Of a stretch of DNA of 64,000 bases, positions 17,457 through 42,908 are shown piece after piece (the first letter of the stretch is position 1; the number at the start of each line of letters is the position of its first letter). The stretch covers positions 40,772 through 104,771 of IMG/VR virus record IMGVR_UViG_3300037070_001066, one strand, 5' to 3'. The notes under the pieces were generated by a model that saw nothing but the letters and a program-made list of their open reading frames with translations, did not search any database and was not told the origin of the DNA. This DNA comes from a virus. A program made the position numbers and the translations under genes.

Positions 17457-20400
17457 CTACTCTAATATCGTGTATAATTGATAATAATCTTTATCTAACT
17501 GAGACCATATTGGCACAAGTCTTTTAGTTGCTTTAACTAATTCATTCTTGTGTTTAGCGTCTTCATCTAAATATGAAAAGAAATTTTCATCATCCTCTGG
17601 GAAGAAGTTAATTGGAGTTACAACTTGTTGTATAAAGTCTAAACCTGTTTGTATTAATTTAATACCTGCAACAGGATTTGTTAAAATCTTAGCTGTCTCT
17701 CTAGGATCTCTAAATTGAGATAATTCAGACTCTAATCTTCTAAGTTGATATACTAAGAACCATAATTCATCATCATCAGGGGCTGCTGCTCCTGCAATTA
17801 ATGCTCCAATAGCTGGTAAAATTACAGATGTTAACATTATCTCAAGAGTTGCTTTCTTTAAATTAGCCTTCTCGTGGTCTGATAATGAGTTATATACATC
17901 TTTCATATACATCAATTGCATAGACTTCATTGATGGAACAACTCCATTTACGAAATATCTAGCTAAAGATGTGTAAATACCTTCAGTATATTCTTTCTTA
18001 GCAGAACTATAGTTTAATTCATCTTCAGTTAAGTCTTCTCTACTTTTAAGTGATGTAGATATACCTGTATATCTGTAAGCAAGAGCGCCTAAGAAGAAGT
18101 TTTTAAACATCATCACTAGTTTACCTGAGATAGTTTTAGACAATTCATTCTTAAAGTTATTATCATAAACACCATACAAGTCAAATACTTTGCTCTTAAT
18201 CAAAAGATTTATATGAGTTTTACCTCCTTTAGCATATTCAGTAGTAAGATTGTGTTTGGTAAATTTAACTTTATCGTCCATTACTAACTTACCTTTGTTG
18301 TCCATCTTAAGCATATCTAATAATGAAGAAGCTTTAGATTCATCTACAACTTTACCATTCTTATCTATAAATTTATTGTCAGAATTCATCACTTTAAGAG
18401 AGTCTAGTACGGCCATAGTAAGTATAGAGTTCATCATGTGCTCTCCAACTTCGTTTATACCATTCATATTCTTTCTAGAAGCTAACTTCTTTGCCAATGT
18501 ATTTCTAAGATATTCTTGTGTAGCAGGATCAAATCCTCCAAATACATCATACATTTCTAAAGTTTGATTTACAAAAGATGTTTTAACTGGATTACTTAAG
18601 TCAGACAATGTGTTAGGAAGTTCAGTTCCATAAAGTTTCTCAGCTTTAAGTAAATTCTTAGGACTAATAACGTCTCCTCCAAATGACTCTATAAACAATT
18701 GAGTGAATCCATTGAATAAGTTAGCAGTTCCTGATGCTACGTTTAGAGACATAGCAATACTTGCAGTAGCTCCATTTACGTAAGATACAATCTTATTTCC
18801 ATCTAAAGGACCTAATCTTCCTCCATGTTCATGAAATACATCATATATCATCCTGTCCATTAAACCTTTTATTCTCTTATATTCATTAGTAAATTCACCT
18901 GGAATAGTTACAACTGGCTGATTCTTGTTCCAAATATTCATTAAAGGAAGTCCAGTTTTAGTAGAAGTTTGAAAATACCTTTTACTTTTAGATACATCTG
19001 CCAACATAATAGCATTAGTTTCGACCTTACTTTTCTCTCTAAAGCTAATAACATTGAAATATTCTTTTCTCAGCATTGTAGCTACGTCTAAAGATTGAGT
19101 TTTTGGATCTATATCACCTCTATAATGAACTTTAACACCGCGAACAGACTCACCTGTTTTGTTATCTATAGCTTCACCATATCCAACATCATCTGGTTTA
19201 ATCTCAGTAGCATCTGTCCACTTTTGTTTAACTAAGCCTTTAAAGTCTTTCTCTACACCTCTTTCGAAATCAGATTTAGTTATAGATGGAAACTTATAGA
19301 AACTTACTTGGCCTGTCTTTCTAACAAGACTCCTACTTCCGCCTGTAGTTGTGTGACCTAATTTGGCTAAAGAAACTGCTTCTTTAAGCATTTCAGCACT
19401 AGCTCCAGTTGGTTTAGTATTTCTATATTTGTCTTTAGGATACCATTTAAGACCATGTTCATCAGATTGATCTCTAACTGTATGCTCTTTCATCCAGGCT
19501 TTAGTCTTCTGATACAATGCTTTGTATTCATCATTCTTCATGAAATCTTTAGCCATTACAGCTCCTTCTGCTTTAAGTTTATCCTTCAATTCACTAAGCT
19601 CTAATTCCATAGGTTTGTATTCTTCTAAATAGATATCTCTAAATTTTACACTATAAATACCTTTAAAGAAGTAATTACCATCTTTGTCTTGCTCATATAT
19701 ATCTTTATATAACTCAGACGGAGCAAGGTTACCTTTTTCTTTAACTAAATCATTAAAAACATTTTTAAGAGCTAAATCATAATCTTTGTACAAATCTATA
19801 ATAGTATCTCTTGCTGCACTAATCATATTAGTGATTATTTGTATAAGTTTACTGTTAGTATTTAAAGGGTCTTCAAAGTTCTTTTTAAATGAACTTATGT
19901 CGAATGCTGGATTGTATACAATTTTCTCTGCAGCTTTAATTAAATCTTCTTCAAATAAATCTTTATCTCTAGTAGTCAACATTCTAGATGCATATTCAAT
20001 TCTAGATTCACCAGTTATTTTCTTATCTACATATTCTTTGTAAAGTCTATTTCTGTGATCTGTCTCTACTTGTGTATTAAACTTTGGATTAGCAAGAAAT
20101 TTAACAGCTTGTTCGTTTTTTATAGCGTGAAACTGAGATTTAAGTGATTTACTTTCACCTGCAGCATAAGATATAATCTTTCTTATAGAATTAAAATCTT
20201 CAACTTCCTCTTCAGTTAAGTCTTTTTTAAGGACAGAGGCTCCAACAAGTTTACTTATATCATCAATAAGATCATATGCGGCTAGATACTCTTCATAACT
20301 ATTTATAGTCTTAAGTAGATCTTCGTCTCTATAGTCTTTTGTTTTCTTATGAAGTCTTTCTAAACCTTTTGTAACTTGAATAACAGTTTTGTTTAATGTA

Positions 20401-21593
20401 TTAGCATAACCTAAAATAACTTTAACTTTTTGAGTCTCAGACATTTTGTCCATCTCTTTAATTAAAGCATCTATATTCTTCAAGTGATCTTTTTTGTCTT
20501 TCCTTGATATAGGTTTTTTTGTCTTAGCAGTTCTAGCTCTAGCTTGAGCAATTCTATCTTTAGTTTCTTTTACAAGCTCATCAAGTTTGTTTTCAAAACT
20601 AGTCATCTCTGGTTTAACAAATTCAAGCTCTTTAGCAAACACACCTTTATATTGAGTCTCTTCATTTTCATCCTGAACATTTTGTTCATTGAAGTCCATT
20701 ATCGTGTTGAATAAGGTTGTATATTCACTATTTAGTGGTATATTGAAAAATCTTCTTATTGCGTTAATGAATTGATTCCACAATCCTTCAGATTCAGATT
20801 TAACTTGATCTCTAAATTCAGGATTAGAATAAAACTCAGCAACAAATTCAAATTCATTTTTAAATCCATATTCCTCTGCTAAATCACTATCTTTGTATTT
20901 CTTCATAAACTTGTCAACAACTTCAACAAGTTCTTTCTCTGCAAGAGTTCTATTCTTAGGATCTTTAGCTAAAGCATCAGCAGTAATACTATGAACAACT
21001 TCATGAAGAAAAGCTACAACAACATCTTTCTCACTAAGACCTTTAATTCTCTCTGAAGAAACTTGAATTTTCTTAGATACTGGGTCATATTGCATAACTG
21101 CAGAAGTAGATATCATGACTTCTTCATCAACTAATTCAACTTTTGCTTTCGATCCACCCATAATACGTGCCGCTCTAGTAGCTAAATCTTGCGCGTAAGG
21201 CGTTAAATCAGAAATTCCAGTACTTATATTAGATAAAATATTATCGACGCTTAAATCGCCTTTAAATAGGTTTTCAGTAAATACTTCAACTTCAGGATCA
21301 TATGAAATTTCTTCATCAAGAGTATTTGGAGCATTTTCATCAACTAAATCATGAAAATTTACTTCATCTGACAATCCTATCTCACTAATTGGTTCTGTTA
21401 ATTTTTGTTCAGGTTTTGCATTTTCTTTAACAACTGATGCAGTATGTAGTTCGTCTACTGTAGGAAACTTTTCAAGTCCATTTACTTCTTGCCACAAAGA
21501 TATCTTAGCAGCAGCAATTAGGGGACTAACCCCTAACTCGCTAGCCAAATCAATAACAGCATGACTCTTATGATTAACACAATGTATTGCCAT
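17457..21593 (-). CDS. Large virion cargo/ejection protein with zincin metallopeptidase domain
   Basis: 1378 aa; HEVVH at 20991-21005 with downstream EFVAE; helical C-terminal part with a hydrophobic segment; downstream of the vRNAP gene as in crAss-like phages. Confidence 0.75.
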   Translation of the reverse strand: MAIHCVNHKSHAVIDLASELGVSPLIAAAKISLWQEVNGLEKFPTVDELHTASVVKENAKPEQKLTEPISEIGLSDEVNFHDLVDENAPNTLDEEISYDPEVEVFTENLFKGDLSVDNILSNISTGISDLTPYAQDLATRAARIMGGSKAKVELVDEEVMISTSAVMQYDPVSKKIQVSSERIKGLSEKDVVVAFLHEVVHSITADALAKDPKNRTLAEKELVEVVDKFMKKYKDSDLAEEYGFKNEFEFVAEFYSNPEFRDQVKSESEGLWNQFINAIRRFFNIPLNSEYTTLFNTIMDFNEQNVQDENEETQYKGVFAKELEFVKPEMTSFENKLDELVKETKDRIAQARARTAKTKKPISRKDKKDHLKNIDALIKEMDKMSETQKVKVILGYANTLNKTVIQVTKGLERLHKKTKDYRDEDLLKTINSYEEYLAAYDLIDDISKLVGASVLKKDLTEEEVEDFNSIRKIISYAAGESKSLKSQFHAIKNEQAVKFLANPKFNTQVETDHRNRLYKEYVDKKITGESRIEYASRMLTTRDKDLFEEDLIKAAEKIVYNPAFDISSFKKNFEDPLNTNSKLIQIITNMISAARDTIIDLYKDYDLALKNVFNDLVKEKGNLAPSELYKDIYEQDKDGNYFFKGIYSVKFRDIYLEEYKPMELELSELKDKLKAEGAVMAKDFMKNDEYKALYQKTKAWMKEHTVRDQSDEHGLKWYPKDKYRNTKPTGASAEMLKEAVSLAKLGHTTTGGSRSLVRKTGQVSFYKFPSITKSDFERGVEKDFKGLVKQKWTDATEIKPDDVGYGEAIDNKTGESVRGVKVHYRGDIDPKTQSLDVATMLRKEYFNVISFREKSKVETNAIMLADVSKSKRYFQTSTKTGLPLMNIWNKNQPVVTIPGEFTNEYKRIKGLMDRMIYDVFHEHGGRLGPLDGNKIVSYVNGATASIAMSLNVASGTANLFNGFTQLFIESFGGDVISPKNLLKAEKLYGTELPNTLSDLSNPVKTSFVNQTLEMYDVFGGFDPATQEYLRNTLAKKLASRKNMNGINEVGEHMMNSILTMAVLDSLKVMNSDNKFIDKNGKVVDESKASSLLDMLKMDNKGKLVMDDKVKFTKHNLTTEYAKGGKTHINLLIKSKVFDLYGVYDNNFKNELSKTISGKLVMMFKNFFLGALAYRYTGISTSLKSREDLTEDELNYSSAKKEYTEGIYTSLARYFVNGVVPSMKSMQLMYMKDVYNSLSDHEKANLKKATLEIMLTSVILPAIGALIAGAAAPDDDELWFLVYQLRRLESELSQFRDPRETAKILTNPVAGIKLIQTGLDFIQQVVTPINFFPEDDENFFSYLDEDAKHKNELVKATKRLVPIWSQLDKDYYQLYTILE

Positions 21594-21599
21594 ATATTT

Positions 21600-21962
21600 T
21601 TATTTTAAAAATTTTAATTTATATAGCGTACTATATATTAATTCTAATATGTCATCAATTATTTGTTGTAGATATCCGCAGTCACTTAAAGACTCTCTAA
21701 AGGATTTAAAAGACTCAATAAATCCTTCTAAATAAGAAATTGGACTAATGCTTTCAGAAATAGAAAACGACTTATAGCCTTTTATAATTCCATATTCTCC
21801 TTGGTAAGACTCAATGAATCTATCTCTAAGATCTACAATATCTCTATATAATCCATCTAAAGCTTTATGCTCTGCAAAACTAGATGTTTGCAAGTGAGCA
21901 ATATGTGCATTTACTTCTATTGCAAATAGGTTAGACACAAACTCTTGTACTTTATTTTCCAT
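21600..21962 (-). CDS. Ferritin/Dps-like four-helix protein
   Basis: AHIAHLQTSSFAEHKALDGLY...DRFIESYQG and C-terminal IDDI...TLYKL. Confidence 0.75.
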   Translation of the reverse strand: MENKVQEFVSNLFAIEVNAHIAHLQTSSFAEHKALDGLYRDIVDLRDRFIESYQGEYGIIKGYKSFSISESISPISYLEGFIESFKSFRESLSDCGYLQQIIDDILELIYSTLYKLKFLK

Positions 21963-24900
21963 AACATTCTATTAATTTTTCTTTTTCATCGTCACTTAAC
22001 GCCATGAATGACTCCTTAGTCATAGTAGGATCTGCTTGTTGGAAAGCCTTAGAATGCTTATTCCATGAATCTTCAATAAACTTATCATAATCTTGTTCAG
22101 TAGTCTCTTCTCCAGTTAAATTCAATGCTCTTGAGGCATTTCCTTCAATAGTCTCAGCTTTGTTACTAATTCCAATTACAGTAGTTTTAGCTCTAGTTAA
22201 AGCCGTATAAATACTTCTAGATTTAGATTTTGCTGATAAAGGACCAACACTATTGATGTCTTGGATATCTACTATAACACTATCATATGTAGAACCTTGA
22301 GATTTATGTGAAGTTATAGCATAAGCATAATCTATGTTAGCAAAAGACTTTTTAAGTCCCCATGCTTGTGCATACATTTGCTTTCTTAATGCTCCAGGAG
22401 GCATTTGTTTAGCCTTAGCGAACATCTCAGCTACTCTTTCATTAAACTCAACTTTAGATTCATCTGCAAGTACTGGAAATGACATATCAGTATTAGTTCC
22501 ATCACCACGCTCTACAGTAACTGCATAAGCTTGAAAACCATTATATGTAGTCTTTCTAACACCTTTTATAGAGAATTCATCACTATTAGATACCTTAGTT
22601 CTAGAATCAACATCAAAGTTGTCTTGGAACATTATAATATCATTCTCAATTAATTGAGGCACATCTTCTCCGAATACAGCTTTTCTAATATCATTATTGT
22701 AAGCAGTTCTTGTAGCGTTTCTATATGTAACAACTTTGATTACATTAGGGTTTTGCTCAAGTATACCTCTTTTAAATGAGTCTACTACATCTTCAAATAT
22801 ATGACCAAATGATCTTACAAATACTAAATTACCTTTAGGAGATAATGTATCTTTCATAACTCCATCTGGAACAGGATCTTGTTGAGAAGTTTCTAACTCA
22901 GAGTTATCCCAATAATAATCTGCAAATGGAAGTATAGGAGACTCTTCTCCTTGACGAACACGTTCAGTTAGGCTAGCTTTATTCTCAGAATCAAATACAG
23001 GACTAATGCTATCTAAATCAGTTTTAGACCATCCATGATAATAAGGATTTTTAAGATCTCTAATAGGAGGCAATTGACCTCTATCTCCCAAGAACACTAA
23101 TTTAGCAGATCTTCTTTTCATCTCCATCATCATCTCAATAGCCTCTTCATTAACCATAGAAGCTTCATCTATAATAATAATATCATGTTTAGTAATCTTA
23201 GCATCTTCAGAAAATGAATCAGTAAACTCACCTGTCTCAACATCCATAGTCTTGCCTAATATACCAGCTATACTTCCACTTTCAATCTTCCCAGGATATC
23301 TATTGTCAAGCTTCTCTGATAAAACTAACTTAGCTTTATGAGATAATGCTGCAATTAAAATCTTTTTACCTGCATTTACAAATGGGGCAATAGCTTCTTG
23401 TACAATAGTAGTTTTACCAGTACCAGCCTTACCTTCAATTACAAGTATCTCTCCTGGATTACCATTCTTAACAAACTCTTGAATTACGTTAATTGCATTC
23501 TCTTGTTGTTCATTTGCAGGTTTAAATACTTGCTTATTATTAATGCTGTCATAAGGAGGGTTTGTTATAATATCAACTTTAGGTGTTGCAAGAATACCAT
23601 GTTCAGCTAAACTAAGTATGTTCCTTCTTTCAGAAGATTCATCTACCCATTTCATTATCTTATTATTAGTAAGAGAAATAATTGTATTATTAGGAGTAAC
23701 AACATAATCACTACCTAAGTAAGTAACAAATTTACCTTTCTCTTTTCTACTTGTAAGTTTAGATTTAGATACAGACAGCTTAGCTAAAGCACCTTCCATT
23801 CCTGGATTATATATTTGAACAGTTCCTATTGCATTAAATTGAGTAACTATATATGGAACTCCATTATAATCTACAAATCTACCAATTTCTAAAGGATATT
23901 CGCTAATAGGTTCAATTTTCTTGATATTAGTACCAGCTTCTCTTTTAACTGCTTCATATTCTTCTTCGGTTAACTCATGAGGAACAACATCTGCATCAGC
24001 TGCGTCCATTATAGCCTCTTCAGTTCTTTTATACAAATCTCTAATGGCTTGTTTTGCAGCTTCTTCTTTTTTAGTTCCTAAATACTCTTGTCTAGGAGTC
24101 CATTTATTAGTAGATTTATCTAAAGTATTATAATTTTCTATATCTCTAGTTCCAACACCTGCAAAATCCTTAGTCAAAATAGGTGGTTTATGTAGTTCAA
24201 AATACTTACCATTCCATCTATTCCACTTTTCAGTTTTAGTGTCCCATACGTAAACAGGTTTTCTTAACTTAATACCTAATTGAACTGCAGTATTAGTTCC
24301 TCCATGTACAGCTGTTGAATTGAATTTATCATTAATATCTAAAGGAGCTACAGCAAATACAGCATCAGAATTAGCTACTTGATAGTAATTTCTAACTTGA
24401 AGATTGCCTTGAACTGTATTTGGGAATTTTTTACCAAGCAATCTCTCAACTTCAATCCTAGCAGTTTCCATTTGTTCATCTGTTAATACAGTTGCTTCTA
24501 CTTTGCTATTTTTAAGTTTTTGAGATAGTCCAGTATTTTTGCCCTCTCTATAATGTTTATGTTCAGTAACACCAAATTCTCTACCAATAATATCAAAGTA
24601 TGTATCTGCACCATAAGCTCCACCACTATGATTAGTTATTTCAGACATAGAAGATACTTCTAGTACAGGTTCTTTTAATACTATAGAATCTTTTATATCT
24701 TCAACTTTACGATATACTGGAGCAAGTTCTTTAACTTCAACAGGTTTCCCTGGCTCTTCAATTCTTTCATCAACCTCTGATAATTCAAAGTTAGGATTAA
24801 AGTTTTCTCTTTCAGTTACAACCATATTCATTAAATAGTCAATTTCTTCTTTATTACTTAATTCTGGTCTCTTAATGAATCTATCTCCATATTCTATAAC

Positions 24901-27900
24901 AACACTTCCTTTAAGTTTCTTACCAAGAGGATTTACTCTTGTATAAATTCCTTTGTTTTCAGAATCATATCCTTCAAGTTTATAAATATGATTATCATCT
25001 AATTGAACATAGAATCTAGACTTACCAGATTCTTTCTTAATGAAGCCAGATTCTTTATCTCTAGTAACCATTTCATTCTCGAATACTAAAGGAACATATT
25101 TGTACTTATGTGTATTGTTTAAATAGAATTTATCTATGAAATCTTCTTGATTTGCTCTAGAAAATTTAGGAACAAAGTAATTTACACCTTCATTTATCAT
25201 ATATTCATGAGGAATATATGTATAGAACTGATTAGAGTTCATTCTAAATCCTGAAGTAAGAAATGAATACTTTATTAAATCTTCAGCAAATTGAACATGG
25301 TCTAATCTTAAATCTCTCCATGAATCAGTAAACTTCTCTTCAAATGATGTAGATTTCTTTCTATTATTCAAAGATATGATCTTAACTTTACCATCTCTTT
25401 TAATTTGAAGCTCATCTAAGATCATATACTTACCTCTATATTCCTTTCTAAATTCATCAAATTTAGCAGGAAGATTATTAAGTAAATCTCTAGACTCTTC
25501 TTCAGATAAGTTAAATGGATTAAAGTTAGACATTACATAAGTGTAGTAGTTTTTCTCTAAATCTGTAGTAAGCTCTTCATTTGTAGCAGGCATACTATAT
25601 AAATCATCAGAAATTGTATTAAACATTTTCTGAACTTTCTCCTGTCCTTGAGGAAATAAACTTGGATTAGATTGGACTATTCTCATCATCTCTTTAAGAG
25701 ATTCAAAGTAATGTCCTAATGTAGTATTGTCAAACTTAGATTGAAGTCCATTTAAAGCCTTGTAATTATCATTCTCTTCTTTACCTAAAATATATTGTTT
25801 TAAGTTAAAAATAGAATATAATGAGTTAATATTTTTACCCATACCATTAGTGTCTAATTTAGAGACATCAACATTCTCTTTCATAGTTTTACTAACTTCT
25901 TGCAATTCTAAGAACTTTTTATATACAGCTAATTGAAATGGACCATCTGGCTTGCCAGTAATTTGTTCTCTAAAGAATTGTAAGTCATATTCTTTACTAG
26001 TTATATTAACAGTTTCTTCCTTAAAGATTTCATTATGAGCATCTCTAATCTCATCCAATATTGGATTTATTTCATCAAATGTAGCTTTCTTTCCAAGAAC
26101 TTTTTTAATCTCACTAACTCCTTTATCTAGTGCCTTATCATTAAGAATCCCATCTGCTTTCATTTTTTGATAAACAACTCCATAAGGAAATCCTTTTTCA
26201 TCTTGAAGCTTGATAAGATTTTCTAATACAAGATTTCTTTTAAATTTAGTCTTAGTGTCTCCACTATTCTTAGATGTAATTGATTCAAGACTAGATTGAT
26301 ACTGAACATATTGCTTTATTATTGGCTGAGCCATAAATGCAGTAACATACAAAGGATGTGTGCCTGATCTTAACAATAAGTTTCCTATATTAGTTGTAGA
26401 TGTAGTCCAGTTTCCTCTAGTAATATAAGGGTCTTTGGCTATATCCACAAATGCATTAAGAATTGCAGTTAATGAATCGCCTATCTTAACTTTACTAATT
26501 TCGTTAGCAAGTTCTTCAGATCCATTCATTGCTTTAAGATAATACTCTAAATCAGATGGACTTAATTGTTCAGAAAACTCTTTATCAAATACTGTCTCTC
26601 TAATATTATTTCTAACTTCACTATGTCCCCAACCAATGTAGTATTTATTTAGACTTAAATTACCTATTCTATTAATATCAACCAAAGCGTTAGCTTCTTG
26701 ACCAACACCTGCTTTACCCCCAATAAATTCATATCTAAGTTTGATATCACTAACAGCGTCAAAGTGAAACATAGGTTTACTTGTATCAGCCTTCACAAGG
26801 TCTTTTATCTCGTTCTCAATGAACTTAATATCTACGGGCTTCATAACATCCTTAATTACTTTTGGATTCGTTAAAACAGCCTTATATAGCTCCACAAGCC
26901 TATTCTGAACAGCTTCCTTAGATTGTTCTTCATTGGACAACTCTGGATTGTATTCAGTGTACTTAAGTTTGCCTTCTGATAATGTATAGTTAGACATCAT
27001 AATGAACATCTTATCAATATCAAAATCCGATCCAGTTTTAGTTGTAATACCTGTGTAAGCTACAATTGTATCGCCATTCTCTTCAGGAAGGATTCCTACT
27101 ATTTGTAATGCATCATTAGATGAAAGTCCTTGATTTGGAATACGATATCCTACTATATTACTTAAAATTCTATCATCTATAATCCCTTCAACTTTATTAC
27201 CATCTTCATCTGTATATCCAAATAATTCTTCAGCTTTATATTTTTTGTAGTCAGGAATATATTTAGCAATAAACGATCCTGATATTAATATACCTCCTGG
27301 TCTAATCTTAGTTTTACCAGTATCTTCATCTACATATATTGTAGGTTCAAATGTGGTATCTCCATTGTTTAATACAGGACTCCATATAATACCTTTGTCT
27401 CCATTTTCTTTAGATATGCCAAAGTTAGACATCTGAATGAATGCTCCACCATTAGTTTTAATCTTAATCAGCCTATCATTCATAATAGAAGAATAGATGC
27501 TTATGATCTTGTCTATAGACTGTGGCATTCCATATAAAGTAACTTGTTTATTAAGAGCATCAATTATATTTTTAGATCCACCTCTTTTTTCAAGCTCTTT
27601 AACTAAAGCGTTATATAATCCTTTTACATTGTTTATCTTACCACTCTTACCTATACTAAACTCTTTGTTAACTTCTTCAAGTCCTTTACCTATAAGGCCT
27701 TTAACTATGTCAGAAATTCCATCTGAAATCTCCTTTCCAGTTACATCTTTTCCATCTAAATAGAAACCTTTTTGTTTTGCATTAAACTTTAGACCTGCAA
27801 ATATATTCTTTTGAATTTGAGATCCTACATCAGTTTGTTTAAATGTTTTAATAGGAAGATCTTGTTGCAATTTCCATCCATAATTAGACAGACTTACCTT

Positions 27901-30900
27901 ATTAAAAGTAACATTATCTATCTCTCCTTTAGCATTATGAATAGTAGTTGGAGTAGGAGAACCTACTTTAAATCCATCTATTGTAATAAGCTCATCAACA
28001 CCTTGCTCTTGCATTCCATTAAACAACTTCTCTAGTCCAGTATTTTTAACTAAACCTCTAGTTAATACAGCTTGAGAGTATTTAAGGTATGTAGGAGTTT
28101 TTCCATTCATATAAAAGTAAACACCCTTTAATGGTTGTGCCATTATCTTAAGTTCGTCTTTAGTATAGATTGGATGTGTATCTGATGTCATTTTCTCATA
28201 CACAGCATTGTGAGTTTTATTATCCCACTTACCAAGTCTTTCAAGTAAGAATCTCCATCTTTGAGGAGTTATCCAAGCTTGAGCATCAGCAGAGTTAATT
28301 TTTTTGTATGGTTTAGCACCATCTTCTCCAAGCATTTCAACTAACTTATCAAATACAGGAGATTCTATTTCTATACTATTAATTGTAGCAGCAGTAAAAG
28401 TTTCTTCTCCCTCTTTCAATCTCAATTGAAGTCCATCAGTATATGTACCAGGAATACGTTTCTTATAATCAACCATGTTTTTATAGAAAGCAACATCTCC
28501 TGTAAACAGTTTAGAGTACTCTATATTTTGAATTAATCCGTTAATATAGAAGTCAGATGCTGCAGATGTAACTGCATTAGTTGTATCTCCAAAATTATTT
28601 TCTAAATACTTTTTAAAAACGTCTTTATCTATTCTTTTATTAGAATAACCGTCTTTATTTATTTCTACAACTTCTTGGTTAATCAATGAGAATACAGTTT
28701 CTTGTATACCACCTTGTAGCATATCATTAATATATGCTTCTATCTCAGATCTTAACTCTGGATTAGTAGACAAGTCAGCAGTATGTTTAATACTACCATC
28801 ACTGTTATATAACTTACTTTTAATTTCATTAACAGCACTATTGTCAGATTTCTCTGAGAAAGATAACTCTGGAAAGTATTGAGAATTAAATGCATTACCA
28901 TTCTTTGAGTAAATATCTGAACCTGCTTTGTAATGATAATGTATTCTAAGATTCTCAGGGTTCTCACCAGCAACATCTACTTCAGCATTAGCCTCCTTCA
29001 TTCTATTGAATTCAGAGTTAAAGTAGTTGAAGAACAATCTTAATGTTCTATCATTAATAGAAACCTCATCATTTCTAATAGTAGTTGTATCTACAAATAG
29101 TCCAGTTCTAATTTGAAGATCTGTAGTCTTATCAGCAGGAGTTGTTGTTCTTACATATGAATTTGATAATACCTTATTTAAGTTATCATTAAAGTAATCA
29201 TTGTAAGATATATCACTTGCAGACACATAGTCTCCGTCTTTCTCTTGAAATGTATTGAACACGCCTAAATTTAAACTATCAAGTCTTTCTTTAGATACTT
29301 TTCTTCTTTCTTCTTTTAGTCCATCTTTAAGAACTTTTTTATTTCCAAATTCATCTTTAGGATTAATATCTAATGCTAGTAAGTATTTTGCAAGTTCAGA
29401 TCCTTTATTATATGCAGATTGGTCATACCAATTTCTTAACAATTCAGGATTTTTCTTCCATTGTAAAATTCTAGTAGAGATATATGACGGATATGAAAAC
29501 AACCATTTATTCTTACCTGAAGTCCATATACTTGCATCAGAACCTTCTGACAAAAAGAAAGACTCTGCTTTAGCTAACTCTTTAAATATACTTTGAGTTT
29601 CAAAAGGATTGTTAAAATCTTTATGAGCTTTTTTAAAATAGTTTAAAGATTTCTTTAGAACATAACTAGTTCTTTGAACAGATTTAGTTAACTTACCTTT
29701 CTGATGTTCAATATTGAATGATTTGGATCCATTATCATCTAAATAGTTAATAAAACCATTCTTTGTCAATTCAACTCCTAACTCTCTAGTTAAAGCAACA
29801 TATTCATTAGAGTATTTAGTAAATTCCTCTTCGGACATATCTTTAGAAACTAAATTAAGAAGTGAATCTAGCTCACTTATAATACCTTCTAAATTAGCTT
29901 TAGCTCCTTCTTTAAATGAATTATCTTCTTTCAAGAAACTTAGTCTAAAGTTATTACCCCATTCTGATTCAACAATAGATGCCTTAGATCCAGACTCTGA
30001 AACTTCTTTCACGTCTAACTTAAATGTCTTTTCGACATTGCTAGTTTCCGTATCTACAACTTTAGTTCTTATCTCAGATACAAGAAAGTTTTGCTTATGT
30101 AAGTTAAATGCTTGAGCAAATTGATTCTTATCGCTTTCAGTAAATCTCTTATCGTTAAAGAATCCAATCAATTGATTTAGGTATTCTTTTTTGTAGGCTA
30201 TTTTCTTAATCTGAGTTCTTTGCAATTCAAACATATCTTCACCAGGAAGAGCAACTTGATTTGAAATGTTGTTTAAAAGAGTTGAGTATACATCATTAAA
30301 TGGAACAAACGTAGGTTCATTCCATACAGGATCTCTTTCTTCGTTGTTTTCAAGCAAAGACAATCTAAGTTTAATGTTGTTACTTAAAGAATTCTTACTG
30401 TCTTGTTCAAATGAAGCTTTGTTGAATACAGGATCTTTACCTTCTTCACTTATCGTTTGTAAGTCAGAAGCTTCGTCGTTATCAACTCTTTTAATACTTA
30501 TCTGTTTGTAAAAATTGTCAATTCTATCTACATATTCATCTAAATAATCTAATGACTTTCCGAGAGATCTAGACATAAATTTCCCTTTAGGACCTTCTGT
30601 TTGAAGAGAAGCTATCTTCTTTTTTATTTCAGATTCAACATGATCTCTTAATCTAGGAAGTTTTTCTCCTTCTTCGAATTCAATGTTATTGAAGTTAATA
30701 TTAGGAGATTGTTTAAAGTAATTTAAAGCAAGTCTAGAAACAATTCTATCCATTTGTTTATAGTCAAAAACAGAACGAAGTCCTCTTTTTTCTATTGGAT
30801 ATGGTATCTGTTCATCATTTTTACTAATGAAGTAATACTTTTTAGACTCTTCACTATAAAACAATTTAGGTTCTCCATTATCGTAAACTCTTTTACTGAA

Positions 30901-31092
30901 TGAAGGATCTCCTTCTTTATATCCTTCAACCCAATCTCCAAATTCTTCTACAAATGCAGATTGTTCACCAGGAACAACATCAAAATAAGCATAAGCTTCC
31001 TCAGCTTTAAACTCATTACTATAGATATGCTCTAATGTTTTAATCAATTTCGATTCAGAACCATTTGTTCTTGTGATCTTTTTACACGCCAT
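21952..31092 (-). CDS. Virion RNA polymerase (crAss-type double-psi beta-barrel) fused to SLOG-like and SF1B helicase domains
   Basis: ADAQAWI, GYRIPNQ and catalytic GSDFDIDK (~27.0 kb); SGGAYGAD...RNYYQV...GGTNTAV; GKAGTGKT, IIIDEASM, GDRGQLPP, RVRQ, TSHKSQGSTY and YTALTRAK. Confidence 0.9.
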   Translation of the reverse strand: MACKKITRTNGSESKLIKTLEHIYSNEFKAEEAYAYFDVVPGEQSAFVEEFGDWVEGYKEGDPSFSKRVYDNGEPKLFYSEESKKYYFISKNDEQIPYPIEKRGLRSVFDYKQMDRIVSRLALNYFKQSPNINFNNIEFEEGEKLPRLRDHVESEIKKKIASLQTEGPKGKFMSRSLGKSLDYLDEYVDRIDNFYKQISIKRVDNDEASDLQTISEEGKDPVFNKASFEQDSKNSLSNNIKLRLSLLENNEERDPVWNEPTFVPFNDVYSTLLNNISNQVALPGEDMFELQRTQIKKIAYKKEYLNQLIGFFNDKRFTESDKNQFAQAFNLHKQNFLVSEIRTKVVDTETSNVEKTFKLDVKEVSESGSKASIVESEWGNNFRLSFLKEDNSFKEGAKANLEGIISELDSLLNLVSKDMSEEEFTKYSNEYVALTRELGVELTKNGFINYLDDNGSKSFNIEHQKGKLTKSVQRTSYVLKKSLNYFKKAHKDFNNPFETQSIFKELAKAESFFLSEGSDASIWTSGKNKWLFSYPSYISTRILQWKKNPELLRNWYDQSAYNKGSELAKYLLALDINPKDEFGNKKVLKDGLKEERRKVSKERLDSLNLGVFNTFQEKDGDYVSASDISYNDYFNDNLNKVLSNSYVRTTTPADKTTDLQIRTGLFVDTTTIRNDEVSINDRTLRLFFNYFNSEFNRMKEANAEVDVAGENPENLRIHYHYKAGSDIYSKNGNAFNSQYFPELSFSEKSDNSAVNEIKSKLYNSDGSIKHTADLSTNPELRSEIEAYINDMLQGGIQETVFSLINQEVVEINKDGYSNKRIDKDVFKKYLENNFGDTTNAVTSAASDFYINGLIQNIEYSKLFTGDVAFYKNMVDYKKRIPGTYTDGLQLRLKEGEETFTAATINSIEIESPVFDKLVEMLGEDGAKPYKKINSADAQAWITPQRWRFLLERLGKWDNKTHNAVYEKMTSDTHPIYTKDELKIMAQPLKGVYFYMNGKTPTYLKYSQAVLTRGLVKNTGLEKLFNGMQEQGVDELITIDGFKVGSPTPTTIHNAKGEIDNVTFNKVSLSNYGWKLQQDLPIKTFKQTDVGSQIQKNIFAGLKFNAKQKGFYLDGKDVTGKEISDGISDIVKGLIGKGLEEVNKEFSIGKSGKINNVKGLYNALVKELEKRGGSKNIIDALNKQVTLYGMPQSIDKIISIYSSIMNDRLIKIKTNGGAFIQMSNFGISKENGDKGIIWSPVLNNGDTTFEPTIYVDEDTGKTKIRPGGILISGSFIAKYIPDYKKYKAEELFGYTDEDGNKVEGIIDDRILSNIVGYRIPNQGLSSNDALQIVGILPEENGDTIVAYTGITTKTGSDFDIDKMFIMMSNYTLSEGKLKYTEYNPELSNEEQSKEAVQNRLVELYKAVLTNPKVIKDVMKPVDIKFIENEIKDLVKADTSKPMFHFDAVSDIKLRYEFIGGKAGVGQEANALVDINRIGNLSLNKYYIGWGHSEVRNNIRETVFDKEFSEQLSPSDLEYYLKAMNGSEELANEISKVKIGDSLTAILNAFVDIAKDPYITRGNWTTSTTNIGNLLLRSGTHPLYVTAFMAQPIIKQYVQYQSSLESITSKNSGDTKTKFKRNLVLENLIKLQDEKGFPYGVVYQKMKADGILNDKALDKGVSEIKKVLGKKATFDEINPILDEIRDAHNEIFKEETVNITSKEYDLQFFREQITGKPDGPFQLAVYKKFLELQEVSKTMKENVDVSKLDTNGMGKNINSLYSIFNLKQYILGKEENDNYKALNGLQSKFDNTTLGHYFESLKEMMRIVQSNPSLFPQGQEKVQKMFNTISDDLYSMPATNEELTTDLEKNYYTYVMSNFNPFNLSEEESRDLLNNLPAKFDEFRKEYRGKYMILDELQIKRDGKVKIISLNNRKKSTSFEEKFTDSWRDLRLDHVQFAEDLIKYSFLTSGFRMNSNQFYTYIPHEYMINEGVNYFVPKFSRANQEDFIDKFYLNNTHKYKYVPLVFENEMVTRDKESGFIKKESGKSRFYVQLDDNHIYKLEGYDSENKGIYTRVNPLGKKLKGSVVIEYGDRFIKRPELSNKEEIDYLMNMVVTERENFNPNFELSEVDERIEEPGKPVEVKELAPVYRKVEDIKDSIVLKEPVLEVSSMSEITNHSGGAYGADTYFDIIGREFGVTEHKHYREGKNTGLSQKLKNSKVEATVLTDEQMETARIEVERLLGKKFPNTVQGNLQVRNYYQVANSDAVFAVAPLDINDKFNSTAVHGGTNTAVQLGIKLRKPVYVWDTKTEKWNRWNGKYFELHKPPILTKDFAGVGTRDIENYNTLDKSTNKWTPRQEYLGTKKEEAAKQAIRDLYKRTEEAIMDAADADVVPHELTEEEYEAVKREAGTNIKKIEPISEYPLEIGRFVDYNGVPYIVTQFNAIGTVQIYNPGMEGALAKLSVSKSKLTSRKEKGKFVTYLGSDYVVTPNNTIISLTNNKIMKWVDESSERRNILSLAEHGILATPKVDIITNPPYDSINNKQVFKPANEQQENAINVIQEFVKNGNPGEILVIEGKAGTGKTTIVQEAIAPFVNAGKKILIAALSHKAKLVLSEKLDNRYPGKIESGSIAGILGKTMDVETGEFTDSFSEDAKITKHDIIIIDEASMVNEEAIEMMMEMKRRSAKLVFLGDRGQLPPIRDLKNPYYHGWSKTDLDSISPVFDSENKASLTERVRQGEESPILPFADYYWDNSELETSQQDPVPDGVMKDTLSPKGNLVFVRSFGHIFEDVVDSFKRGILEQNPNVIKVVTYRNATRTAYNNDIRKAVFGEDVPQLIENDIIMFQDNFDVDSRTKVSNSDEFSIKGVRKTTYNGFQAYAVTVERGDGTNTDMSFPVLADESKVEFNERVAEMFAKAKQMPPGALRKQMYAQAWGLKKSFANIDYAYAITSHKSQGSTYDSVIVDIQDINSVGPLSAKSKSRSIYTALTRAKTTVIGISNKAETIEGNASRALNLTGEETTEQDYDKFIEDSWNKHSKAFQQADPTMTKESFMALSDDEKEKLIECYGK

Positions 31093-31104
31093 TTTTTATA
31101 GTTT

Positions 31105-31140
31105 ATGTAAATATACAATTTTTTTATTTAATATGCAAAT
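31105..31140 (-). promoter_or_regulatory. Bacteroidetes-type promoter upstream of the vRNAP gene
   Basis: Minus strand ATTTGCATAT-N14-GTATATTTACAT, i.e. TTTG-N20-TATATTTA, close to the -33 TTTG / -7 TAnnTTTG consensus. Same boxes recur at 50601-50636. Confidence 0.65.
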
Positions 31141-34100
31141 TAAAATCCACATATTTGTTTTATATCGTCAATAGACTTGTTATTTTTCTTAGCAACATCT
31201 ATTAGCTCATTAAAAGTCTTATTAAGATTCTCTGAAGAGAAAGATTCATCAGAAGTGTATTTATCTAAAACGTTGAATTTGTCAGCAAGACTAAATATAA
31301 CTTCTGCCTTAGTATCATCATCAACTTTATTAAATAAAATTTCTAATTCATTGACATTAGTTTTAACATCTTGTTTACTATTAGGAGCTTCTTCTTTCTT
31401 TTTCTTGGCATTAAGCATATCTTGAAATAATTGACTAGTTCTAGCAACTTTACCTTCTTCATTAGACTCTACAGTAATCTCCTTCTTAACTTCCTCTTTA
31501 ACTTTCTTAGCAACAGGTTTGCTATTTTTAACGTCCTGATTAAGATATATATTACTATATCCTTGAAATGTAGGTTGATTAACTACAGCATTTGTTGTCA
31601 ATAGTGGCATATTCTTATTTAGAAGGTATTCTACATATGCTGGGTTATTGAAAACAAACTGACCTGGAGCATCTCTAGTTATAAGAATGTTATGTCTCTT
31701 ATATTGAACATATCTCATTATAGCCTCTCTAGCTTCAGGAGAAGCTAACTCTTCTTTAGTTATAGACAATTTATGTTCAAATCCAGAACCATCTAATAAA
31801 TGCATTGCTAATGAACCTAGAATTAAATTACCGTCAGGCATTAAATTAAAACCAGTTTTAGGATTTAAACTTTTATGATATATGATTAAGTCTAATAACC
31901 TAGAAAGACTTTCATTCCTTTCATCACCTTTAGCAGTTCTTTTAACAAATCCTATCTCACCTTTCAAAGCTTCTTGTAATGAAGCACTAAGATCTGGATC
32001 TATTTCATCTAATTGTTTAAAGAATTGTCCTACAGTTAAAGCTTGAAAACTAGTCTTCTTGCCTATAGACTGAGATACTTGACTTAAAGATTTAACAATC
32101 TCATATACAGCTTCAGCTTTCTCTTCATTTATTCTAGACACATTTAGCTTTAAAGGGAATGGAGTTCCATTGTTTTGATTGACCATAAGGAAAACTTCTC
32201 CCTTAGACTTTATACCAATATTAGTTTGCATAATATGATCTTTGTCTAATGTACTAACTAAGTTTCCTTCCCAGTTAACATAACCAGTATTCTTTTGAAA
32301 ATATTCAATCTTCTGAGCTTTAGTCATACCATCAAATACCTGTAAATCAAGTACACTGTTCATTGGAACAGGACCATCCTCTTCTCTCTGAGTTATTTTA
32401 AGGACTCCAGGGAACTGATCTATTACGTTTGATGATATACCATCAAAACCTTTATTTAATACAGCCTGAGCGATTATATTGCGTCTGAGAGGCATAGTTT
32501 GCTTCTCTAGTATCTCTTGAGAATCAGGATGAGCTTGATTGTCTTCAGTTTTGTTTTCTATAAAAGAATGTACTTTTTTCTCTTTACCATCTTTCTTGTA
32601 TGTAAACGTAACTCTAATAGGTAATTCATCTTCAAGTAACTTAATGTCGCTTGCTGTGGCAATACCAGAAACTAAATTATTAAATGCAGCTTCGACTTCT
32701 TTAGTAGTTGTCTTAATTACTTTACCAACATTATTAGGATCTGCTATAGAACTTACAAATGAGAAAGTTACTCCGTCACCAGATTTATCTCTAGGAGTTC
32801 TTTCATATTCAACGAAAGATTCTAAATTAGGATATAAAGCTTTGCCAGTTTTTCTTTTTGTACTAATAACTTTAGCTCCAGCTTGAGGAGAATCTAAATC
32901 ATCGTCAATTTCTTTCTCAGTTTTGTTAGCTCCAGTTTCAACTTCTTCATCTTCAACTTCATCTTCTCTAGTAGGTAATGATTCAGATTGATAATCTCCT
33001 TCTTCATCTTCAGTTACAGGAGGAACTACGATTTCTACAACTTCTTCAGGTTCGTCTATCTTTTGAGTTTCTTCTAGTTCTGTTTGAATGTTTTTCTCTA
33101 CCTCTTTTTCTACAGCCTCTTCTTCGTTTAATTGATCTTCTTTTTCTTTAATCTTCTGAGCTATAACAGGATTCTTGACTAGAGGATTAACCTTCCTATC
33201 TTTAAGATTCTGTATATCTTCCCAAAACTCTCGTTCATTATTTAATGAATTAAGAGCTTGCTTATTAATTACAGCCTTATTTATCCTATTAAGTTTATCT
33301 TTAGTGTCTTTTAAATCAGATTTAGCTTCTTGTAAGTTTTTAGATGTTCTAAGAAACTCATCTCTAACATACTTATAATCTTCCATATTAGTACCAGGCT
33401 TAATCTTGCCTAACATGTCTGCATATGTCTCAAGTATACCTTTAAGTACAGTTCTATATCCATCTAATGAATCTACAGCTTCTTCAAGTTCTTCAACTCT
33501 ACGTTCTGTACCTAATTGATGTGTTAACAAAACTCCTAAGTCTTGACGATGATCTTTAAATAGATCTGAACTTTTATTTAAGTAATCTACAATATCCTGA
33601 ATGGTTTCTAATTCAAGATTATTCACTTGATTATACCTGTCAAAGATATAGTTAATTTCTTTATTTAGTTGTTTAAGTTCACCTTCAAGGTCATTGATAG
33701 CTTTTTCATACCTAGAGATGTCTTTATTAACCTCTTCTAGCTGGTTTTCAGCCTCTCTAATGAGTTGTTTTAATATTTTGGCATTACGACCTCTAGGAGA
33801 TTTATTCTCTTCTTGTAGAGCCTTAATTAAAGCCTTCTGAATTGATATAAGATTGTTTAACTCGTCTTGATGTTTAGATAAAGTCTCTTGAACTTCTTCA
33901 GCATGACTATAATATTCGTCTAATACATCTTCTAAAGTATCTTTAAAAGCTTCTTGCTCTTCAATTCTTCCTGACAATGTATCTTCTATATCATCTATTA
34001 AGTCATTAATTGCAGATGAAGTCATATTCAATGCTTTCAACTTATCTAAATTTGACTTTAAATTAGAAGTAGAATCATCATTTGATATACTTTTAGAAAC

Positions 34101-36578: not shown

Positions 36579-36579
36579 C

Positions 36580-38559: not shown

Positions 38560-39112
38560 TTGTTAAAAATTTAAAAGTTGTTTTATTAATTGTTTGCCCT
38601 CTTAAATATTGACTTAATGTAATCATTACAAAGCCATTTTCATTTGCACAATCTGCAATCGAGTCCCAAATTTTCCCAGTCTCAGTGCAAATAACTTTTT
38701 TAGCCATTCCACTATTTTTTTTAAGATTTTCTTTATGATATTCAGAATGTTTTATTCCTTTATTCCATGAAGGTTTTCCTAATTTATTTTTTGACATTTT
38801 CTTTTTAGATTTATCTGAATGTTTTAATCCAAAAGAACCTTCTCCTCCTAATGTTATATTACATAAAGTTCCGGTTCTAGAAGTTTTTCTTCCATAATAA
38901 TCAATTAAAATAATCTCTAATTCTTTAGCATCTTCTAATTCCATATCTTTTTTCAATATTTCAACTAAATAATCAGGATATTTTTTAATTGTTTTAGACC
39001 AAATATCATTTCTATGTCTTCTTTCATATGGTCTTTTTATATTACCTATGCCTATATAAAAGACTTCTCCATTTGGTTTTATATGTCTATATATGCAATA
39101 TCTATTTGCCAT
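38552..39112 (-). CDS. Free-standing GIY-YIG homing endonuclease with NUMOD3/NUMOD1-like repeats
   Basis: CIYRH...FYIGIG..KR, E..LI, NITLGGEG, HSDKSKKKMS, SWNKGIKHS and KKVICTETGKIWDSIADCA. Confidence 0.8.
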   Translation of the reverse strand: MANRYCIYRHIKPNGEVFYIGIGNIKRPYERRHRNDIWSKTIKKYPDYLVEILKKDMELEDAKELEIILIDYYGRKTSRTGTLCNITLGGEGSFGLKHSDKSKKKMSKNKLGKPSWNKGIKHSEYHKENLKKNSGMAKKVICTETGKIWDSIADCANENGFVMITLSQYLRGQTINKTTFKFLTNG

Positions 39113-42100: not shown

Positions 42101-42218
42101 GTGGGTTAGACTCATGACTTCCACCGACATTATATGTAGTAAAAGGCCCTCCATTATCATATGTCTTTCTAGGATTTAGATAATCATTATATTTGTCTTT
42201 AATGTTATTATTCTGCAT
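39102..42218 (-). CDS. Virion cargo protein with glycine-zipper segment and zincin-like domain
   Basis: GGSHE...VEQGE...YIFSD N-terminal domain, GPWGAAAGAVIGG zipper, HEIAH at 40338-40352; follows the muzzle-like gene. Confidence 0.7.
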   Translation of the reverse strand: MQNNNIKDKYNDYLNPRKTYDNGGPFTTYNVGGSHESNPHSGIPLGEDSLVEQGETSVNLDQSGVPTEKPTGSKYIFSDRQVWSPEEIKAAGLPSSRVPVTAGEYMGKLSGKFKDKAGSKADKETLDAFTKRATQLAEQKRIQQEQLEQAMQMNSQQVAPENTEVPEGMEEYAGEQQSFDNGGSYGSMFSSMYDQSKSMPQSIEAPAMPTSLTGSGAGAAAGGADATSGMLSGAGSYMKAAGTAFDLYNTAKTGNTSPKAGSAIASGAVQGASAGMMFGPWGAAAGAVIGGASGYFGSQKAKKNIAEGQDMLINKVNAGMPNSSAWTGIGGPAEERVAAMGGYITHKPSKYASGGKVTSEDDTNTVQRGADALQVSSKLLNRGVLSKFPGNVGSMYGIYDSYNNNKSYNPADIIGILPGGVPQMLSETIDQGSREKRMIDEYAKKARKINPKIELKERYSTVKDSFADGGHINPPKYNANDFYNKPNDILGVNKMSRPTLPQEYGMYAIPSTTGIVQATASGTRKEPRRIGLNEKIKPYTGNDQEVISARNNIQNWYNNPETRRRFTQNTGMDSNVLNPLIAHGLNVPISAGTPGDGTQAQFSRYPNENTVFEKGAGKGVVDHEIAHGMGVDSILGPATQKVLGSPYDQKVKNAKRDVKRYMQTPEETYGNFHQFRTKLGLKPGEVIKDGADLEARTKAAGAESENFYRTYDNDNIVKAVNTIAQNKDKTTPTYAKNGGLIKKKYLGGGKYGEEGILTDKGITDDLASQYLNRNTLQNDFGNISANASNPNASSFLGENAGDLKGAANSAMRLYPAISNYIERDKITKPTGTYSARLNDAYNVPQVDEARAMRDINAAYNNKYRALGQMGGSQAQQRAAMLGIGAQQNEAISKTQEGLENIRINRAMQEQQYKSQIAQYNAGKSDYDRETYDKDIANYDSQRSKFTSQIGNDIGAIGLENDRMDQVANMYGYDRRGNYLVNKKTGKVATPEEISKMKEAALGKTPPTLKAGDKYLNAEGKEVTVSAYGGFLTRRSYGK

Positions 42219-42855: not shown

Positions 42856-42871
42856 ATTAATATATTTATAC

Positions 42872-42908
42872 AAAAAATGGGAAGAAAGTTTTTAGCTCTC
42901 CCCCCATT
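42872..42908 (-). terminator. Hairpin plus U-tract just upstream of the GIY-YIG gene
   Basis: Minus strand ATGGGGGGAGAG-loop-TTTCTTCCCAT-TTTTT; stem includes G-U pairs. Confidence 0.55.

Follow-up and report, generated by a model that had tools for sequence, protein, structure and literature searches.

A crAss-type virion RNA polymerase fused to a SLOG domain and an SF1B helicase in an uncultured phage

How the virion RNA polymerases of crAss-like phages start transcription on the incoming duplex genome is an open question, and the sole purified enzyme, gp66 of phage phi14:2, works well only on single-stranded DNA (ssDNA). A gene that bears on this question was analyzed in a stretch of 64,000 nucleotides, referred to here as the window, that spans positions 40,772 to 104,771 of the IMG/VR virus record IMGVR_UViG_3300037070_001066. 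A single open reading frame (ORF) on the minus strand (21952-31092) encodes a protein of 3,046 amino acids, P0001, with zero internal stops under translation table 11, which is described below as a polyvalent crAss-type virion RNA polymerase (vRNAP). The source record is 104,771 bp long, was rated 100% complete by CheckV, and belongs to a crAss-like phage, as indicated by a crAss-type major head protein (PHROG_11589, 4e-137), a tail fiber and virion proteins; it also contains a run of giant genes on the minus strand. No match to the gene was obtained by megablast in a set of 50,697 phage records. An original prediction, made from the letters of the window, had read the gene as a polymerase fused to an accessory domain and a helicase. 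Is the fusion real, does the helicase belong to the polymerase, and what could such a combination do when it enters a cell?

Domain composition of the fused protein

By homology, amino acids 1-2057 (24922-31092, minus strand) are a two-barrel RNA polymerase of the phi14:2 gp66 type. This body shares 31% identity with phi14:2 g066 (tblastn, 94% of the query, E 3e-178) and matches the solved gp66 structure, PDB 6VR4, with an E value of 1.3e-229 (chain 6vr4_A). A motif search located the catalytic motif DFDID, which has the DFDxD form of the family, at amino acids 1356-1360 (27013-27027, minus strand); it is invariant in 18 relatives and lies at amino acid 1361 in gp66. As in the gp66-family gene block, the gene is flanked by gp67-like and gp65-like virion genes. 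The likeness to gp66 includes a homologous body, the catalytic motif at the same position, the gp67-gp66-gp65 order and two terminal cysteines. Unlike P0001, gp66 has 2,180 amino acids, stops right after the polymerase body and is devoid of SLOG, SH3-like or helicase parts. In published experiments gp66 transcribed ssDNA or denatured DNA and native duplex barely, and the related enzyme QDE-1 needs RPA and a helicase (bioRxiv 10.1101/2020.03.07.982082).

Near the other end of the protein, amino acids 2519-2979 (22156-23538, minus strand) form an SF1B helicase of the Dda/RecD type in which motifs I-VI are intact, as judged from PHROG, Pfam and PDB matches. The best profile match was PHROG_325, "Dda-like helicase" (2e-77). 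Three Pfam models scored over their cut-offs, AAA_30 (73.4 bits, cut-off 27), UvrD_C_2 (38.2 bits, cut-off 27.4) and PIF1 (29.1 bits, cut-off 25.9), and AAA_19 matched as well. The nearest solved chains were 9kwf_B (6e-30), 8jx6 (6e-18) and T4 Dda (3upu, 1e-9), together with RecD/RecD2, and the core of 9kwf_B was aligned at full length (residues 8-426 of its 434 residues paired with amino acids 428-868 of the C-terminal query). All seven SF1 motifs were located on the minus strand: motif I, GKAGTGKTT (23407-23433); Ia (23332-23352); II, IIIDEASM (23155-23178); III, GDRGQLPPI (23062-23088); IV, LTERVRQ (22951-22971); V (22282-22314); and VI (22186-22209). They have canonical residues and are invariant across the 18 relatives, in which the mean column identity is 57%. 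This conservation indicates that the helicase is under purifying selection and, from its sequence, the domain looks catalytically intact.

The seven motifs and the full-length core alignment are shared with T4 Dda, RecD/RecD2 and other SF1B helicases (3upu, 3e1s, 1w36_D, 9kwf_B, 8jx6). Unlike Dda and RecD, the P0001 helicase is part of a fusion, has no cysteines, is preceded by two SH3-like barrels and is followed by an acidic tail bearing a cysteine. Its identity to the closest stand-alone helicases from metagenomes is 40-47%. The acidic tail, amino acids 2980-3046 (21955-22155, minus strand), bears C3043 (21964-21966), one of the two cysteines of the protein; a match of this tail to AcrF31 (Pfam E 0.077) was dismissed as noise. 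SF1B helicases such as Dda, RecD2 and Pif1 translocate 5′ to 3′. By family membership, ATP-driven translocation and unwinding in this direction would be expected of the fused helicase.

The segment that precedes the helicase, amino acids ~2395-2479 (23656-23910, minus strand), was modeled with AlphaFold2 (AF2) as tandem SH3-like barrels of the KOW/Tudor/Agenet type (pLDDT 80.8). The barrels carry an internal repeat, G[RK]FV.Y.G..Y.VT, and matched the KOW domains of uL24/eL14 and Spt5/NusG as well as Tudor/Agenet domains with Z scores of 7-8.4 (Foldseek, VIA). These matches are generic and, on the model, identify a fold and not a function. The barrels are conserved in all 18 relatives and are paired with the helicase throughout the subclade, whether or not a SLOG domain is present. 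Pfam matches of the segment to CBM_5_12 (E 0.017) and DUF4178 (E 0.053) were considered noise.

A SLOG-fold domain lies between the polymerase body and the barrels (amino acids 2126-2320, structured from ~2143; 24133-24717, minus strand), and was assigned from PHROG_768 and a structural model. It contains the motifs SGGAYGAD (24604-24627), RNYYQVANSDAV (24358-24393) and GGTNTAV (24283-24303); SGGAYGxD and GGTNTA are conserved in an alignment of the domain (A1), with G139, G140 and T141 invariant. PHROG_768, "DprA-like", matched at 3.8e-9 with the whole protein and at 2.2e-12 when the genome was searched. The segment alone matched no Pfam model, and the alignment profile gave noise alone against PDB sequences (E 0.6-0.9), so a comparison of structures was needed. 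A model computed with AlphaFold from 16 short homologues (pLDDT 82.7, pTM 0.80) was closest to 3imk, a protein of the cpYpsA family deposited as "putative molybdenum carrier" (VIA-align Z 11.5, root-mean-square deviation 3.5 over 132 residues; Foldseek probability 0.99). The matches that followed all belonged to the SLOG superfamily, with Z scores of 5-7.5. They included DprA (6.3-7.5; 3maj 7.5 and 3uqz 7.2), the molybdenum cofactor (MoCo) carrier protein MCP (2iz5, 7.3), YpsA (2nx2, 7.2), ShosA (6.9), LOGs (5-6) and TM1055. The Pfam cpYpsA model (PF12694) did not match the P0001 domain and matched weakly in 6 of 17 relatives (best E 0.0065). The assignment that stands on this model is a SLOG fold of the YpsA-like clade, nearest to cpYpsA.

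Two narrower assignments were rejected. The domain is not DprA proper, given that no Pfam DNA_processg_A match was obtained at E≤10 and that DprA structures scored under 3imk. It is not a LOG phosphoribohydrolase either: the LOG motif, which we take to be PGGxGTxxE with a catalytic Glu, aligns with GGTNTAVQ, where a near-invariant Gln takes the place of the Glu, and LOG structures reached only Z 5-6. The substitution makes binding more likely than hydrolysis of the LOG type, and the domain most likely binds a nucleotide, an ADP-ribose-type ligand or ssDNA without hydrolyzing it.

If the ligand were ssDNA, the domain could act in the manner of DprA, binding the displaced or template single strand delivered by the helicase and passing it to the polymerase. 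The PHROG_768 match and the Z scores of the DprA structures point in this direction. N4-type virion polymerases, which also carry SLOG domains of this family (see below), use single-stranded or hairpin templates, so that both vRNAP classes with a SLOG share this property. We nevertheless regard a DprA-like role as distinctly unlikely. The cpYpsA-type structure 3imk scored well above DprA, the DprA Pfam model was missing at the E value given above, close relatives have enzymes of unrelated chemistry in place of the domain, and polymerases with a SLOG and no helicase exist.

A Rossmannoid fold, a glycine-rich loop after strand 1 and a GGT motif are shared with cpYpsA, YpsA-like and viral SLOGs (3imk, PF12694, PMC9503650). 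The P0001 domain differs from cpYpsA and YpsA in that it reaches the threshold of no Pfam model and belongs to a subfamily found mostly inside two unrelated kinds of virion polymerase. Iyer et al. (2022) placed viral SLOGs in the YpsA-like clade, linked them with NADAR and Macro domains and noted sporadic SLOG-SF1 helicase fusions (PMC9503650); an association with NADAR is also seen in the relatives of P0001.

The original prediction had listed a vRNAP core with DFDID near 27.0 kb, an acidic linker, a SLOG-like domain at ~24.0-24.65 kb, a small beta domain and a Dda/RecD-like helicase with all motifs apparently intact. Parsing by structure and profile agreed with this order and with every domain in it: the DFDID motif and the 6VR4 match identify the core, the quoted SLOG motifs were located and the best matches of the model were all SLOGs, the beta domain resolved into two barrels, and the seven helicase motifs accompany the PHROG_325 match. 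Its background on the phi14:2 enzyme, a DFDID motif and transcription of single-stranded or denatured templates, was also correct (bioRxiv 10.1101/2020.03.07.982082). The linker was present but only mildly acidic (19 D/E versus 15 K/R in amino acids 2040-2130). The interpretation of the original prediction was supported in part: the functions that it proposed, the opening of duplex DNA or the pulling in of the genome by the helicase and the binding of ssDNA or nucleotides by the SLOG, are putative.

Reality and frequency of the fusion

An ORF of this kind could be an artefact in which a chimeric assembly, a missed stop or a frameshift joined two genes. Nothing in support of this explanation was found. 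The exact protein occurs on three contigs, GC content and skew are uniform along the gene, and the full-length architecture is common to 18 relatives at 51-79% identity, with one-frame encoding on the independent IMG/VR contigs L010, L011 and L013. The last 947 residues of P0001 then served as the query for homologues of 1,675-5,331 amino acids. Giant proteins bearing the helicase formed at least 380 clusters, mostly on contigs of 90-105 kb among the matches listed, and a crAss-type polymerase core and the helicase were joined in 113 of the best 119 clusters. The three identical copies and the joined clusters exclude an assembly error, and the probability that we assign to an artefact is negligible.

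The order of the parts varied within these best 119 clusters. With R for the polymerase core, S for SLOG, b for the SH3-like barrels and H for the helicase, R-H-S was the most frequent arrangement (71 clusters), followed by R-S-b-H, the order of P0001 (15), R-b-H (10), R-H (8), H-R (6) and R-S-H (3). A search for related loci was empty with the single C-terminal protein as the query, and relatives were found with an alignment (A2). Four architectures were present among the phi14:2-like IMG/VR relatives: the polymerase only, at most loci; polymerase and SLOG (L022 and L026); polymerase, SH3-like barrels and helicase (L011); and all parts (L010, L013 and P0001).

Similar giant ORFs of the vRNAP block, with the same helicase or the same SLOG family, are found in uncultured Crassvirales in RefSeq. 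The 4,946-amino-acid ORF of cr118_1 (NC_055872) is annotated as "exonuclease V", and ORFs of cr113_1, cr109_1 and cr130_1 are annotated as "DprA-like". These proteins differ from P0001 in that they belong to other families (Suoliviridae) and have other sizes and other domain orders. Public annotation thus names the whole giant after an accessory domain, and the combination is not recognized there. The original prediction had proposed a survey of such fusions among crAss-like vRNAPs and had allowed for an assembly error. The survey confirmed the fusion and found helicase fusions to be frequent; the architecture, which had been presumed rare, is much less unusual than that, being ordinary for uncultured Crassvirales. 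In a related helicase-bearing giant of 4,977 amino acids (P0114), Hom_end and LAGLIDADG_3 Pfam domains were also detected, which suggests an intein or homing endonuclease inside a gene of the vRNAP block.

An exchangeable slot inside a packaged protein

Comparison with the closest relative, P0002, defined a discrete slot between the polymerase and the SH3-helicase unit. Identity per 100 amino acids is 0.65-0.94 in the polymerase, drops to 0.19-0.28 in amino acids 2101-2400, and recovers to 0.74-0.91 along the SH3-helicase unit. The slot, whose boundaries were mapped at the protein level, comprises the linker, the SLOG domain and a helical extension (amino acids ~2107-2385; 23938-24774, minus strand). 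In relatives it holds DUF7831 (P0002, amino acids 2131-2265), an AlkB-like 2OG-Fe(II) oxygenase plus SLOG (P0004), or NADAR (P0018). DUF7831 (PF25176) and PF08902 were also observed to recur with the helicase, NADAR and SLOG in many vRNAP-block giants of 1.7-2.5 thousand amino acids.

The SLOG subfamily extends beyond crAss-like phages. An exhaustive profile search returned 1,835 representative clusters, of which 293 reached E≤1e-30. Among the best 135 new representatives, 47 were proteins of at least 1,500 amino acids with a crAss-type polymerase core, 11-12 had N4-type virion polymerase segments, and 23 were short stand-alone proteins. Klebsiella phage Pylas gp65 has a SLOG at amino acids ~981-1142 of 3,819 that is 41% identical to that of P0001 (L008, 12001-12483), and the SLOG of Alteromonas phage PT15-A5 (L009, 12001-12297) is 35% identical. 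Both lie inside N4-type (Schitoviridae) vRNAPs just upstream of the polymerase domain, as do those of the 11-12 metagenomic clusters. On a FastTree tree, which is rough owing to long branches, the 11 rows for N4-borne SLOGs require 11 changes, at least five of them forced by supported branches. A single transfer to the N4-type polymerases was ruled out, as the copies do not form one clade on this tree; their scatter points to repeated capture of this SLOG family. Fused and stand-alone helicases also interleave on their tree, with at least five transitions, and the P0001 helicase falls in a supported clade of 18 fused forms.

Taken with the carriage of the same family by N4-type polymerases, the swapping of the SLOG slot is explained by an injected, interchangeable accessory no less well than by a fixed component of a transcription machine. 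One explanation goes further and regards the polymerase as a vehicle only, with the cassette and the helicase as early effectors of an injected counter-defence kit. In that case the SLOG would have ADP-ribose-derived immune signals as its ligands or substrates, and the helicase would clear incoming DNA of restriction, Cas or nucleoid proteins or shield this DNA, much like the packaged methylase-helicase DarB of P1. The exchange of cassettes at a fixed slot between near-identical flanks is what such a kit would predict, and so is the presence of the SLOG family on non-homologous polymerases in copies that fall into more than one clade. A precedent exists in the packaged polyvalent proteins described by Iyer et al. 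2017 (PMC5512222), among them N4 vRNAP hubs and DarB; the YpsA-like affinity of viral SLOGs, with their NADAR and Macro links and occasional SF1 fusions (PMC9503650), is compatible with such a kit, and the helicase is optional among close relatives. On the other hand, the SH3-helicase unit is constant in the subclade and the cassette alone varies, so the helicase does not behave as an arms-race module. The few copies injected would be too few for a stoichiometric signal sponge. We consider this explanation a serious rival, if less likely than the reading favored below.

The parallel with polyvalent proteins holds in several respects. P0001 is a giant protein encoded among virion genes, with several unrelated domains in a set that varies between close relatives, and the proteins described by Iyer et al. 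(2017, PMC5512222), such as the N4 vRNAP fusions and P1 DarB, are likewise giant, multi-domain and virion-associated. They also have accessory domains that vary between close relatives, probably work within minutes of entry and include a helicase packaged with DNA. P0001 differs from the N4-type examples in its hub, a crAss-type two-barrel polymerase and not a T7-like N4 polymerase. It differs from DarB, a methylase plus SF2 helicase, in that its helicase is SF1B (Dda/RecD-like) and not SWI2/SNF2, and in having no partner methylase.

Whether the extension enters the cell with the polymerase can be approached through cysteines. P0001 has only two, C3 (31084-31086) and C3043 (21964-21966). In 16 of 17 close homologues the count is likewise exactly two, with one cysteine at residue 3 and the other ~3 residues before the C-terminus regardless of the intervening domains, and the same pattern occurs in 13 IMG/VR relatives of 2,188-3,095 amino acids irrespective of their C-terminal content. 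In phi14:2, the sole cysteine of gp67 is its C-terminal residue, that of gp65 is residue 3, and gp66 (2,180 residues) has cysteines at positions 3 and 2179. The giant-gene block of the window (17457-42218) contains four cysteines in ~7,900 amino acids, compared with 0.9% genome-wide. Each of 97 stand-alone helicase homologues contains cysteine (median three), whereas 46 of 118 fused domains, that of P0001 among them, contain none. The retention of the terminal cysteines at the outer ends indicates that the ~950-residue extension was inserted within the conserved frame of a cargo protein. Being cysteine-free like the cargo, and inside the terminal pair, the SLOG-SH3-helicase extension most likely travels in the virion. 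More generally, the three giant cargo-type proteins of the window (17457-36608, minus strand) have cysteines almost only at their facing termini, a pattern also present in phi14:2, the 13 IMG/VR relatives and 17 metagenomic homologues irrespective of length (2,188-3,396 amino acids).

The cysteine pattern also bears on the proposal that the ORF is a polyprotein, cleaved for instance by the gp65-type protease-like neighbor, from which the helicase is freed for early replication or recombination. Cleavage of fused vRNAP-block polyproteins was proposed by Drobysheva et al. (bioRxiv 10.1101/2020.03.07.982082). The interleaving of stand-alone and fused helicases agrees with this proposal, and so does the shortage of other helicases in the genome (no second SF1B helicase, a weak DnaB_C-like ORF only, and no SNF2 helicase). 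However, all architectures keep the conserved cysteine at the extreme C-terminus of the extension, and the helicase shows cargo-type cysteine depletion; neither would be expected of a piece cut off to act as an ordinary cytoplasmic enzyme. Moreover, non-fused relatives replicate without such a helicase and no cleavage site is known, so that we regard release by cleavage as improbable.

The virion genes on both sides of the polymerase have phi14:2 counterparts. The upstream neighbor (31140-36608, minus strand) is a homologue of the virion protein gp67 (tblastn to g067, 31% identity, E 1e-55), and the downstream neighbor (17457-21593, minus strand) is a homologue of the RNAP-associated virion protein gp65 (tblastn to g065, 25% identity over 1,280 amino acids, E 3e-95). 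The phi14:2 proteins gp67, gp66 and gp65 were all annotated from virion proteomics by tandem mass spectrometry (MS/MS). From homology, synteny and composition, the polymerase is most likely packed in the capsid with its gp67- and gp65-like neighbors, ejected, and active in the transcription of early genes.

Other features of the block were recorded. Between the polymerase ORF and the gp65 homologue lies a gene for a 120-amino-acid DUF5856 protein (21600-21962, minus strand; PF19174 1e-21, PHROG_858), which shares 11 nucleotides with the end of that ORF; phi14:2 lacks a gene there. Two homing-endonuclease-like ORFs (PHROG_314; 38552-39112 and 42208-42873, minus strand), the second of which also matches the GIY-YIG family, flank a gene for 1,038 amino acids (39102-42218) with a weak match, under the cut-off, to Crassvirus cargo protein 1 (PF25725, E 3e-4). 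No Bacteroidota-type promoter pattern from which the helicase could be expressed separately was found within the polymerase ORF, and the four matches in the whole window are no more than expected by chance. The sole minus-strand match of the -33/-7 type near the giant genes (42937-42968) is upstream of 42208-42873, so the block 17457-42873 may be one late operon, with the proviso that the pattern count is at chance level.

A possible role of the helicase in transcription

Does the helicase serve the polymerase, or is it a replication enzyme that happens to be encoded there? It is the sole AAA_30 helicase in the 104.8-kb genome, in which the only other helicase candidate was a weak DnaB_C-like ORF (19 bits, under the cut-off) and no SNF2 helicase was found. 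A genome-wide search of phi14:2 gave no AAA_30 helicase over the Pfam cut-off. Among eight polymerase-only relatives searched for AAA_30, six were without a match or under the cut-off, and the other two had a marginal match (29-32 bits) in an ORF of 219-246 amino acids, too short for a full SF1B helicase. Polymerase-only loci showed no SF1B helicase within 10 kb of the polymerase gene, and in L011, a relative with polymerase and helicase, the sole helicase match was inside a 2,911-amino-acid open frame. The reading as a relocated replication helicase was rejected on these grounds, as the non-fused relatives, phi14:2 included, have no SF1B helicase over the Pfam cut-off. As far as these genomes indicate, the helicase is an optional accessory of the polymerase, found in the P0001 lineage on the polymerase only.

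The reading that we tentatively favor is that the fixed SH3-helicase unit helps an ssDNA-preferring polymerase on the incoming duplex and that the cassette is an optional binder of nucleotide or ADP-ribose-type ligands. The polyvalent polymerase would be packed with its gp67- and gp65-like neighbors and ejected into the cell, where early genes would be transcribed. The ~950 residues inserted between the polymerase body and the C-terminal cysteine tail would supply an exchangeable cassette and a fixed SH3-helicase unit. After ejection the helicase would load on the non-transcribed strand and move 5′ to 3′, which is the direction of the polymerase (3′ to 5′ on the template), and would open or clear the entering duplex to supply a single-stranded template. 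The SLOG would be an optional first-minute accessory or counter-defence module and not a core part of transcription. The tie to the polymerase is supported by the 113 joined clusters among the best 119, by the invariant motifs in 18 relatives and by the lack of an internal promoter, and the geometry favors cooperation since the polarity of an SF1B helicase on the non-template strand coincides with the direction of transcription.

Several observations weigh against this reading, and above all against a required role of the helicase. The helicase is dispensable in close relatives, and phi14:2 and most polymerase-only relatives have none; as phi14:2 and many close relatives transcribe their early genes without it, it is not required. 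The variation in order (R-H-S in 71 clusters, R-S-b-H in 15, H-R in 6) speaks against a single fixed geometry of polymerase and helicase. The NADAR, AlkB-like and SLOG domains found in the slot, with the precedent of P1 DarB (PMC5512222), fit by analogy a counter-defence kit. As the weak DnaB_C-like ORF is the only other candidate, the helicase may have a replication role after release. Its activity, packaging and polarity are themselves inferred from sequence.

A stronger version of the cooperation would be a two-motor machine of opposite polarity, like RecB and RecD in RecBCD, that unwinds and perhaps reels in the genome while transcribing it, with the SLOG, whose family was captured repeatedly by crAss-type and N4-type virion polymerases alike, gating or protecting this step. 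We consider this version unlikely, whereas cooperation between the polymerase and a 5′-to-3′ helicase remains our tentative preference.

Part of this picture is known already: the crAss-type vRNAP, the polyvalent-protein concept, in which N4 vRNAPs act as hubs, and viral SLOGs of the YpsA-like clade with occasional SF1 fusions. The combination itself can be discerned in public annotation. An explicit fusion of a helicase or SLOG to a crAss-type vRNAP was not found in the literature searched, although Figure 3 of Yutin et al. 2021 (PMC7886860), which was outside the search, may show one. New with respect to that literature are the census of architectures, the SLOG subfamily on two kinds of polymerase, the cassette boundaries and the cysteine argument for packaging.

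Natural fusions of a polymerase with a 5′-to-3′ helicase provide a direct handle on how duplex DNA may be transcribed by these enzymes, and the cysteine pattern offers a way, from sequence alone, to tell which add-ons ride in the particle. The cassette slot and the recurrence of a single SLOG subfamily on virion polymerases of two unrelated kinds show these polymerases to be carriers of exchangeable tools for the first minutes of infection. The idea of polyvalent proteins is thereby extended to the Crassvirales, the dominant phages of the human gut, which are also common in the sea.

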